From: Eledone cirrhosa
Lineage: Eukaryota
NCBI GenBank assembly: GCA_964016885.1
Contig: OZ024741.1
Span: 143,530,001 to 143,594,000 of the forward strand
Reading direction: 5' to 3'
Length of the DNA stretch: 64,000 nucleotides
The position numbers and the translations under genes are program-made. Positions 13,846-16,796 of this stretch are shown piece after piece (positions within the stretch are counted from its first letter, which is position 1; each line of letters opens with the position of its first letter). The notes beneath the pieces are model-generated. The model did not search any database. It was not told the DNA's origin and saw only the letters and a list, made by a program, of their open reading frames with translations.

Positions 13846-15012
13846 TTATTTGGTACTCGGCGTGACAGGGGGTGTCAGTAATAAATTACTCACTTCGTCG
13901 ACAGGTTCCGTAGTGTAGGGTTTCTGCAGAATATTCTGTGAGCTAGACATGACAGTGGCACCTTTCTTCGAATGTTTCAGTAGGACTGCCTTAGAATATG
14001 GTTGATGAAAGTTGGTGTTCAATGCGACTTTTGGTCGACGCTGGTAGGCAATAAGGGTAGGTTTTGTCGGTAATGGAGCCGTCTGCGTCTGTAGATATTC
14101 AGAAGCCATTTCCGACGATCCGCTCCCGTTGTATGTGGCTTCGTTGCCCTGGGTCTCCAGCTGGTAATTTTCAATGTAATGGCTTGCGTCCACCGGACTT
14201 GTTACATGAGTGAACGAAGGACTAGCTGTATTGGCTGTTTGAGGAGGGTACATAAACTCTGGTGCATATTGGACGCTGGGCATGTTGGTTGTGTAATAGT
14301 AAGCCGGGTTGGTATTCAGGTACTGAGCAGCGGTAGCAGGCTGGGCGACAGTCCAGTGAGCAGCGGGTGGTAGCCACTGGGTAGAACCGAGGTGGTAGGA
14401 ATAGTTCGCCCCCGCATGTGTAAGGGCTCCCGCCGGTGTAAGGTAGCTGTTCGGAGGTTGTGACAGCAAGATAGTATTGGCCGGATAGGCAGAAGTCGGT
14501 GCAACCGCATAGTTTTCGTCGGCCTGTAACAAGGTCATGGCATTTTGATAGGCATAACCAAGCCCGTTGTAGTAAACTGCATTCGGGGTTACTTCTCTAG
14601 AGTCGACCGTGGGTGAAGGATTTTGGTTTGGTATATGACGCTTCACGGCCGGACCGATATTCAGCCTTCGGCCACGGAAGAAGATCGGTTCTCCATCTTT
14701 GGAGGCGAGGCGTTCGGCGTCCTCTTGTTTTTCAAAAGTGATAAAAGCGTAGCCACGAGAGGCGCCTCCTTTGTCGATGATGATTTTCGTGTCTTTAACT
14801 GATCCGTGCGTGGCGAAGAATGACTTGAGGTCATTTTCGGTAATATCTCTCGGTATGCCGCCGACAAAAATCCTCTGGGGTACATAGGTACCGAATTGAG
14901 CACCAGTGGTTACCGTACCGCTGGTCATAGCGGAAGCCGGATAAAGTGTGTTGTGTTTGGTTGACTGGGTCTGGTGTGTGACGCTGGAAGCAGCAACAGA
15001 CAGAGACGACAT
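13846..15012 (-). CDS. boule: Boule (DAZ family) germline RNA-binding protein, intronless ORF, 388 aa
   Basis: Single RRM (aa ~41-125; 14638-14892) with the Boule signature GTYVPQRIFVGGI (RNP2), KIIIDKGGASRGYAFITFEKQEDA (RNP1) and RLNIGPAVKR. It is followed by a DAZ-repeat-like VYYNGLGYAYQNAM and a Y/P/A/T-rich low-complexity tail. Open ORF with GC content above its flanks. The exact start codon is uncertain. Confidence 0.9.
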   Translation of the reverse strand: MSSLSVAASSVTHQTQSTKHNTLYPASAMTSGTVTTGAQFGTYVPQRIFVGGIPRDITENDLKSFFATHGSVKDTKIIIDKGGASRGYAFITFEKQEDAERLASKDGEPIFFRGRRLNIGPAVKRHIPNQNPSPTVDSREVTPNAVYYNGLGYAYQNAMTLLQADENYAVAPTSAYPANTILLSQPPNSYLTPAGALTHAGANYSYHLGSTQWLPPAAHWTVAQPATAAQYLNTNPAYYYTTNMPSVQYAPEFMYPPQTANTASPSFTHVTSPVDASHYIENYQLETQGNEATYNGSGSSEMASEYLQTQTAPLPTKPTLIAYQRRPKVALNTNFHQPYSKAVLLKHSKKGATVMSSSQNILQKPYTTEPVDEVSNLLLTPPVTPSTK

Positions 15013-16678
15013 TACAGAGAACGGCGGCCAGAGAAAGAAAAAGAAAAGAGAAATTTAGTATTATATATATATATATAAAGGCTTATTCGTTTAGTGACTA
15101 CTTTTCTTTTTTTTTTTTAAATGCTTGTTAAAGAATTAAAATAATATATATATAAATATATATATAACCTATACACACACATTCAAAAATACAGTTGACC
15201 AGAAAAAATACCCACACCAAATAATGCGCAACTGAAGTCTGAATTTTATAGTATTTGCTCTGTAGGGTGGTGATTTTCTTTTCTTTTGCTGATAGCTAGG
15301 GCTAACCACCCCTTTAGAGACAGGGGTGGGTGGGTGTGTTGCAAATTGGACTCGGCTGCGGTCAGCTTTTCAACATGTAATTTGAATAGAAACAATAAAC
15401 ATTTATAAGAGTCATTGCTGCTGAAAAACCAATAAATTATAATAATAATAACCATTAACAACGTGAAATAATACAGAGGCCAAAGTTCGTAAAAAAAAAT
15501 ATATATAATATATATATATATATACACACACAGAAAACAACGCGTTTAACATAAGGTAAGAAGAGTAGAAATGGTAAATTAGTTAAAAGTGTGAATTAAA
15601 ATATAGTTAAGGAAAAAAAAGTCTATCGGTTTTTATTTTTCATTCCCAACACTTCTGAATTAATTCGACGTTTTTTGGTTATTGAATAGATTATAGAGAG
15701 CTTCGCTTAACCTGCATTACAAAGACTAATATATATATATCTCTATATATATATATATATAATACAATATAATTACACCAAATGAAAGAAAGTCATATTT
15801 ATATATATAAATTAAAGTAAATACCTTTAGTACTGAATCGCAATTAAGGGTAACTTGAGCACGACACGCAAGCAATCAGGTACATACATAACGGATGTGT
15901 ATCGAGCTACTACTCACCCTCACGTTGGTTTCTAATCAGAAATCGGAAAGCAAAGTCCATGTTTGTTATTCGTGTCCACATGGTGCTCTGTAACCACGTT
16001 TTGCATGATGAGCTGCATTCTGAGTTTTTACAACTTCTTGTTAATTCACTGTTTGTTTAATATAAACAGCCGTTTTGTTGGACAATTTCGAAAATTACTT
16101 GTTAAATGCTTAATAAATTCGGTGATTGTTTTTCTGAATGATATAATAATAATAATTATTACTATTTAATAGGTTCTCCTCCTCTTAAAAAAATAAGGTT
16201 TAGTGCATCAAAACACAACGCCTACAGAAGCAAATTATGGAATGGCGTAACCTGCATCTTGTAATTACCATTTTCTTTTAATATATACATTATTATTATC
16301 TATATTTATTTTAGAGAATTAATTTTATTTAAAAAATGTTACATTAAATTCTCTCGTAGATTATTTAGATTATACGATACTAATTTCTTTAGTTGTTTTA
16401 CACCGTAGATATTGTTCCCCTTTTAACCTTCCGTATTTCAGCATTATTTTTTTTTACTTTTTATTTTCATTTTCCTCCTTGTAAATATTTAGATGAAATA
16501 TATTTTATTTTATTTTTCTGAAATATTAACGAATATTAGACAATTTAGAAAAGATTACCTCATGTTATATTCGTGAATATTTTTTTAAATCGCGCAATAA
16601 TCTTTTTTGATTTTTATATTTATTTATTCACTGCCTGAAACCGTCTTCACTAAGGTGAAAATGAAGCTGTATCAAAAT
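15013..16678. promoter_or_regulatory. Putative bidirectional promoter / 5' UTR region between boule and LSM12
   Basis: Divergent start codons 1.67 kb apart with no recognisable transposon between them. Strong donor-like sites on both strands: + AAG|GTAAGA at 15556 and - AGG|GTGAGT at 15917. The TSSs cannot be read from sequence. Confidence 0.5.
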
Positions 16679-16796
16679 ATGGCGGACAGTGAATGTTTCA
16701 TTGTTGGAAGCCGGATTTCTTGCACCACCGTTTATAATGAGAAACTGGAAGGAGAGGTCGCTGCTTTCGACATAGGTACCAAATTGCTAATAATTA
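16679..16796 (+). CDS. LSM12: LSM12 coding exon 1 (Sm/LSm domain start), MADSECFIVGSRISCTTVYNEKLEGEVAAFDIGTKLLII
   Basis: Matches the LSM12 N-terminus (human [36 protein letters not shown]). Ends in phase 1 at A|GTATCCTTT. An in-frame upstream ATG is present at 16661. Confidence 0.92.

Follow-up and report, generated by a model that had tools for sequence, protein, structure and literature searches.

Boule is among the oldest regulators of gametogenesis, and the layout of its introns serves as a hallmark of the family. The window analysed here (the whole 64,000-nt stretch) carries on its minus strand a Boule-type gene that diverges from LSM12 on the plus strand. How this gene arose, how long it has been kept and whether it uses the promoter of its neighbour are the questions raised by the locus. 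Our answer, which we consider likely as a whole, is that the locus holds a second boule, intact and transcribed, whose coding region has no introns; it would have been retroposed before the octopod-cuttlefish split and is likely driven from the antisense side of the LSM12 promoter.

The frame at 13846-15012 on the minus strand is free of stops over 1167 nt, or 388 aa, in the list of open reading frames and its translation. The uninterrupted Boule ORF reported by the initial annotation is thereby borne out: its 388 codons hold one Boule-type RRM at residues 48-111 (Pfam RRM_1, E 1e-16), and a single RRM near the N-terminus is part of the Boule signature (Shah et al.). Among named proteins the closest matches come from Octopus sinensis and Argonauta, both called 'protein boule-like' (80%); Boule of other animals matches at 44-56% across the RRM, and the Atlas molluscan boule cluster gives the window protein a score of 0.95.

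Contigs of four runs (X24, X1, X6, and X21) were mapped on window positions 12000-18700. X24 is from the same organism as the DNA runs, and X1 from a different organism and study. X24, X1, and X6 were taken as transcript-like from contigs that are spliced or end at the LSM12 donor, no run being recorded as RNA. One 1765-nt contig of X24 covers 13384-14983 and then 15825-15947 with 0 mismatches, omitting 841 nt, and one contig of X1 omits the same 14984-15824 interval and reaches 16029. The skipped interval is bounded by GT..AG on the minus strand, and the DNA-like run X21 continues through the acceptor to 15097. The gene model is as follows.

12924..13845, minus strand: 3' UTR, at least this far (a single X24 contig reaches 13384, more X24 pieces reach 12924)
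13846..14928, minus strand: coding sequence of the putative boule retrogene, a single exon from Met29 to the stop, 360 aa (spliced contigs; same start in XP_029641450.1, CAI9727748.1, and GAB1603559.1)
13858..13881, minus strand: C-terminal LLTPPVTP, which matches the Fbw7/Cdc4 phosphodegron consensus (predicted function only)
14632..14895, minus strand: Boule-type RRM with RNP2 PQRIFVGG and RNP1 DKGGASRGYAFI, without interruption where the parent has three introns (profile match and alignment with the parent)
14929..14983, minus strand: the 55 nt of exon 2 that belong to the 5' UTR (spliced contigs)
14984..15824, minus strand: 5' UTR intron, 841 nt, GTATTT...CCAG, containing the ATG at 15010-15012, 29 nt before the acceptor end (spliced contigs)
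15825..16029, minus strand: non-coding exon 1, minimum extent, with 12 mismatches in 205 nt in X1 (spliced contigs)

The start codon chosen by the initial annotation, the ATG at 15012, is not upheld: it is intronic and is removed in the spliced X24 and X1 contigs. Since this ATG lies inside the intron and an in-frame TAA stands ahead of the splice junction in the spliced mRNA, translation of that mRNA would begin at Met29 (ATG 14928) and yield 360 aa; the Octopus and Argonauta records begin at this Met as well. The description of the gene as intronless holds for its coding region and fails for the gene, in which the 841-nt intron joins an upstream non-coding exon. Exon 1 has six upstream ATGs, and every ORF from these terminates before the coding sequence. 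Candidate poly(A) signals (AATAAA) lie at 12769 and 12754. Two proteins of a cuttlefish cluster, P0015 and P0016, diverge at the residue that corresponds to the octopod acceptor and agree fully downstream of it, so the 5' UTR intron is probably present in decapodiforms too.

A multi-exon parent boule, as the initial annotation had expected, is found intact in the same genome, on a chromosome-scale contig (C26) other than that of the window. Two motif patterns matched C26 in the correct order, 38 kb apart, and the spliced protein P0079 maps along it. The parent has 11 coding exons found at C26:7640567-7751565, a span of 110,999 bases. Each exon is preceded by AG and ten are followed by GT, their phases are compatible and no internal stop occurs; the RRM is divided among four exons at canonical sites. 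An RRM in exons 2-5 with conserved junctions is a described hallmark of Boule (PMC2904765). The C26 gene has this layout and the window copy, with no intron there, lacks it, which makes the copy a Boule-derived paralogue and the C26 gene the canonical orthologue. A first protein search of the genome with the copy's RRM had returned one parent exon only (L009, 34.9 bits) among other RRM genes; the absence of a parent that it suggested was overturned by the pattern searches. These gave eight matches, two in the copy and two in parent exons; the others (L020, L022, L024, and L025) had no boule context and were dropped as chance. Neither parent coding exon 1 nor the segment around residues 178-192 of P0079 was located in the C26 region searched, outside which about 17 kb of intron 2 lies. 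A 54-nt parent exon after the RRM (L045, G000:C26:7679288-7679341), common to P0079, has no clear match in the copy and no clear counterpart in the aligned bivalve and gastropod rows.

The copy aligns with the parent-type P0079 without gaps over 88 RRM columns (50/88 identical), has downstream motifs in common with it to the C-terminus, and is collinear with the parent across the parent's exon junctions. A gap-free alignment across these junctions is the expected signature of RNA-mediated duplication. The intron-bearing parent lies elsewhere in the same genome, its introns are missing from the copy, and the copy's ORF is intact, transcribed and under purifying selection. The copy has thus very probably arisen by retroposition. 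The initial annotation's retroposed paralogue is supported by a multi-exon parent, collinearity over its junctions, transcription and splicing, and purifying selection; the findings that would have spoken against it did not appear among those examined, as the parent exists, the copy is transcribed and dN/dS is near 0.19. DAZL and DAZ retain introns and the window copy has none in its coding region, so this duplicate arose in a different way. The A-run that follows the stop codon is one of many homopolymers there and belongs to the transcribed 3' UTR. Neither a poly(A) relic nor a target-site duplication was noticed at the copy, and the survival of either at such an age is not expected. Comparison of the copy with the parent region by blastn gave short repeat-like matches only, among the matches listed.

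Several side observations concern the surroundings and the rest of the genome. Broken LINE-like reverse-transcriptase fragments flank the locus (window 325-2418, 8192-9876, and 27912-30533; L058-L060), and in the 30 kb to the left of the window frames of at least 120 aa are, as judged by eye, only repeat- or LINE-like. Elsewhere, four long single-frame PABP-type ORFs of 397-633 aa score above the TIGR01628 cut-off (L004, L006, L008, and L013, on G000 C14, C7, C14, and C21); several intron-poor PABP copies thus exist in the genome, of interest as Boule acts via PABP. Long single-frame RRM ORFs were seen at L010 and L017 (C18), L016 (C3), L005 (C17), L012 (C3), and L014 (C1), two of them ELAV-type, one hnRNP-R/Q-type and three unassigned, and there is possibly a wider set of RNA-binding retrogenes.

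Orthologues of the copy were found in O. sinensis, O. vulgaris, Argonauta, and Sepia pharaonis, and in further records. An LSM12 accession lies one to three numbers from that of the boule copy, on a scaffold of the same size, in 4/4 of these named coleoid species: XP_029641450/1 and ...452 in O. sinensis, CAI9727748 and ...747 in O. vulgaris, GAB1603559 and ...560 in Argonauta, and CAE1261243 and ...246 in Sepia pharaonis. The head-to-head orientation was read in this genome only; for the other four coleoids (the cuttlefish, two Octopus species and Argonauta), adjacency follows from neighbouring accessions and equal scaffold size. The longest Logan contig measures 4090 nt for both P0013 (boule) and P0198 (full-length LSM12) of the cuttlefish clusters; this match, of lengths alone, suggests a single transcript contig bridging the two. 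Since the copy and its LSM12 neighbour are common to octopods and a cuttlefish, the insertion is likely older than the octopod-decapodiform split, which dates to about 270 million years ago. The initial annotation's term lineage-specific accordingly applies to coleoids, and not to one species.

A tree of 27 rows, holding Boule rows only and with Nautilus absent, unites 6/6 copies as a single clade (100/100) whose stem measures 1.63 changes per column, and places the window copy among octopods (99/99). The copies thus nest among molluscan Boule in a tree so composed. Their clade is not sister to the coleoid parent and groups with bivalves and gastropods (91/94, drawn open); the donor and the date therefore rest on parsimony.

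The copy is under purifying selection. In 69 C-terminal codons compared with X1, 23 differences are synonymous and 17 are non-synonymous, and dN/dS is about 0.19 (p 2e-5) rather than near 1, on a basis of 69/360 codons and of 40 of 127 differences listed. The window copy and Sepia agree at 75/88 RRM positions; the parent-type P0079 agrees with chiton, bivalve, and gastropod rows at 68-73/88. We infer that the RRM of the copy changed fast early and was constrained later, a long stem branch being followed by conservation. The RRM has the Boule length, gap-free over 88 columns against the parent, chiton, and Littorina; a gap appears against DAZL 2xs2, the DAZL deletion not being present in the copy. 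Relative to the Boule consensus the copy keeps 7/8 positions of RNP2, PNR(I/V)FVGG, and 7/12 of RNP1, DRAG(V/I)SKGYGF(V/I), with conservative changes; the parent is identical at 8/8 and 11/12. Judged from these motifs, RNA specificity may have shifted, RNP1 differing at 5/12 positions. Because the aromatic RNP residues are retained, the copy likely binds U-rich or GUU RNA as DAZL does, with shifts possible (PMC4884919). A representative-protein search gave mostly multi-RRM matches, of which the 13 with a single RRM were used, and three RRM loci matched in a metagenome scan at 32-40% were set aside as unrelated.

TPPxTP occurs within the last 25 residues in 14/14 copy-clade proteins. It is also present in chiton, bryozoan, and Ciona Boule, and a census with isoforms counted has it in 26/65 proteins and lacks it in 39/65, gastropods and bivalves being without it. 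P0079 and P0206 are without the motif, and the parent region has none on the coding strand in the 154,038 bases read. Motifs as short as this, made of P and T, evolve readily. As a sequence match only, LLTPPVT satisfies the Fbw7 CPD consensus, and an Fbw7 phosphodegron in the copy is predicted on this ground. The Fbw7/Cdc4 phosphodegron is given as I/L-I/L/P-pT-P, with LLTPPQS of cyclin E as an example (PMC1802738). The copy resembles the cyclin E degron in LL-T-P-P-x-T, in having no K/R at +2 to +5 and in a phosphorylatable +4, and differs from it in that its motif is known from the match alone. No literature linking an Fbw7-type degron to Boule was found.

The other half of the locus is LSM12, whose exon 1 on the plus strand (Pfam LSM12_LSM, E 1.5e-15) has ATGs at 16661 and 16679.

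16030..16618, no strand assigned: interval between the contig ends of the boule copy and LSM12; 589 nt, AT-rich, 23% GC; candidate bidirectional promoter
16619..16796, plus strand: LSM12 exon 1, at least this far, with its ATG at 16661 or 16679
16797..49849, plus strand: LSM12 intron 1, with GTATCCTT at the donor and CTTTAAC a short way ahead of the AG
49850..57961, plus strand: LSM12 coding exons 2-5 (49850-49983, 52924-53033, 54998-55127, and 57869-57961)

Intron 1, with its GTATCCTT donor and branch-like CTTTAAC, carries what we take by consensus to be a U12-type signature; fly Lsm12 also contains a minor intron. Most of its 33 kb is made up of LINE pieces and repeats of the TA type. At 20700-44100 and 59700-64000 the window holds (TA)n/(TATG)n microsatellite fields that are very long and differ strongly between the strands, and one N gap lies near 33.8-34.0 kb.

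The two ATGs noted earlier are indeed divergent and 1.67 kb apart (16679-15012 = 1667 nt, on opposite strands). The transcripts come closer. LSM12 contigs start at 16619 (X1), 16654 (X6), and 16673 (X24), and the X1 boule contig is aligned to 16029 with 149 further letters unaligned; the divergent 5' ends are thus less than 1 kb apart, a spacing customary for bidirectional pairs, and at most 589 nt if the X1 ends map as aligned. Because the new 5' exon brings the boule and LSM12 contig ends to within 589 nt rather than 1.67 kb, a shared promoter is favoured. The proposal that the copy uses the LSM12 promoter is strengthened by this distance and falls short of being established, as contigs give no TSS; on balance we think it probable that the two genes share one promoter. 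Differences from X1 number 12/205 in boule exon 1, 1/178 in LSM12 exon 1, and 70/551 in the boule coding stretch 14432-14982; the greater conservation of the exons around the interval suggests regulatory constraint there. A sigma-70 promoter scan found five sites against 6.1 expected, a bacterial consensus that does not apply to an animal.

Other readings of the transcript and of its origin have to be set against this model. The ATG at 15012 could be genuine for a longer second isoform from an intronic promoter, and may be the retrocopy's original start, by-passed once the new 5' exon was spliced into N-terminal coding sequence. The intron-end peptide MSSLSVAASS corresponds to MSIPVAASS or MSMPVATSS in frames of the decapodiform clade; the frame of the second Met is kept although the linker differs in length by 9 codons. 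One X6 contig spans the acceptor (14965-15007), and RefSeq lists the O. sinensis protein under two accessions. Both accessions, however, are the short protein, the spliced X24 and X1 contigs exclude the earlier ATG, the X6 piece may derive from pre-mRNA or from DNA, and the conservation could partly be explained by the pyrimidine tract and AG-free zone of the acceptor; we regard a longer isoform as possible and rather unlikely. An origin by DNA duplication, with every coding intron later removed through recombination with cDNA and only the first intron of the parent retained, is improbable. The distance from acceptor to the RNP2 proline codon is close in the two genes (103 nt in the copy, 81 nt in exon 2 of the parent) and the tree leaves the donor open, but the copy has none of the 10 introns that separate the 11 parent exons found, the junction falls in a different phase of the frame (2 vs 0), copy and parent lie on different chromosome-scale contigs, and exon 1 of the copy has, among the matches listed, short repeat-like matches only to the parent region including 20 kb upstream. 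A processed pseudogene carried by read-through from the LSM12 promoter is scarcely credible, with the frame open in octopods and decapodiforms, 75/88 RRM identity with Sepia, dN/dS of 0.19 and a conserved splice site.

The retrogene could be a second gonadal Boule confined to the germline, for instance to the opposite sex or a different stage of meiosis, and driven by a promoter of its own, its closeness to LSM12 reflecting only insertion into open chromatin; we see this as a tentative alternative. Testis and ovary roles are divided among boule paralogues in Macrostomum (PMC3158854), a reproductive role is conserved for Boule (PMC2904765), and the 589-nt interval is AT-rich with no shared element demonstrated. 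Against a purely germline gene, LSM12 adjacency is retained in 4/4 other coleoids checked, and in mammals old retrogenes with new 5' exons tend toward broad expression and head-to-head retrocopies are co-expressed with their neighbours (PMC4772013). Contigs of the boule copy and LSM12 also occur together in 3/3 transcript-like runs, a weak hint as the runs were selected by this stretch.

Under the retrogene reading with a shared promoter, a multi-exon boule mRNA would have been retroposed before octopods and cuttlefish split, and the copy would have gained a non-coding 5' exon, been driven (likely) from the antisense side of the LSM12 promoter, and diverged from its parent in an early burst before selection held it. 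Its protein may, as DAZ-family proteins do, bind U-rich/GUU elements in 3' UTRs through the RRM and control translation through PABP. The exon-1 uORFs and a C-terminal phosphodegron lost by the parent are predicted to limit the protein level, and expression broader than that of the parent is predicted because the copy would follow a housekeeping promoter. LSM12 works with Ataxin-2. In a more far-reaching scenario, which we hold to be doubtful, a translational regulator of the germline came under a housekeeping promoter by copying at the coleoid origin. The product would be a Boule of the soma, perhaps of neurons, whose RNA specificity had changed and whose turnover was timed by Fbw7; it would be co-transcribed with LSM12 and work with it in a single PABP/Ataxin-2 granule module, the parent having retained gametogenesis but not the degron.

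The protein is already public, annotated 'boule-like', under names seen without a paralogue distinction. Titles and abstract openings yielded no description of a second boule in cephalopods, most subscription papers lying outside this coverage; the word boule is absent from PMC8384421, and boule was not found in the searched supplements of cephalopod transcriptome papers. The cephalopod 'boule-like' records represent two distinct genes, and the copy beside LSM12 is not the canonical orthologue. Retained next to LSM12 in both octopods and cuttlefish, this second, retroposed boule offers a well-dated candidate for coleoid innovation in post-transcriptional control.

Compared with the Boule/DAZ family, the copy has the single N-terminal RRM of Boule length, the RNP aromatics, a size of about 40 kDa and the low-complexity Y/P/Q tail (PMC2904765; PMC4884919), and departs from it in lacking RRM introns, in changes at 5/12 positions of RNP1 and 1/8 of RNP2, and in its long stem branch (PMC2904765). 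Flatworms and annelids likewise have extra lophotrochozoan boule genes, some with sex-specific or neural expression; in the available portions of those papers these are not described as retrogenes or as sharing promoters (PMC3158854; PMC10740902), and the window copy is likely independent of them in origin. With mammalian head-to-head retrogenes it has in common a spacing within 2 kb and the gain of a 5' exon, as in most ancient retrogenes (PMC4772013); the present case is a mollusc with an AT-rich interval, and the likeness is one of architecture. The SYCP1 retrogene of amphioxus, the nearest parallel found and thought to have co-opted the promoter of its neighbour CHIC, is likewise a germline gene with a single coding exon, new non-coding 5' exon(s) and a head-to-head partner (PMC5803294). 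Unlike SYCP1, which replaced its parent, the copy coexists with an intact multi-exon boule, its product is an RNA regulator, and the pair has been kept across octopods and a cuttlefish (PMC5803294).
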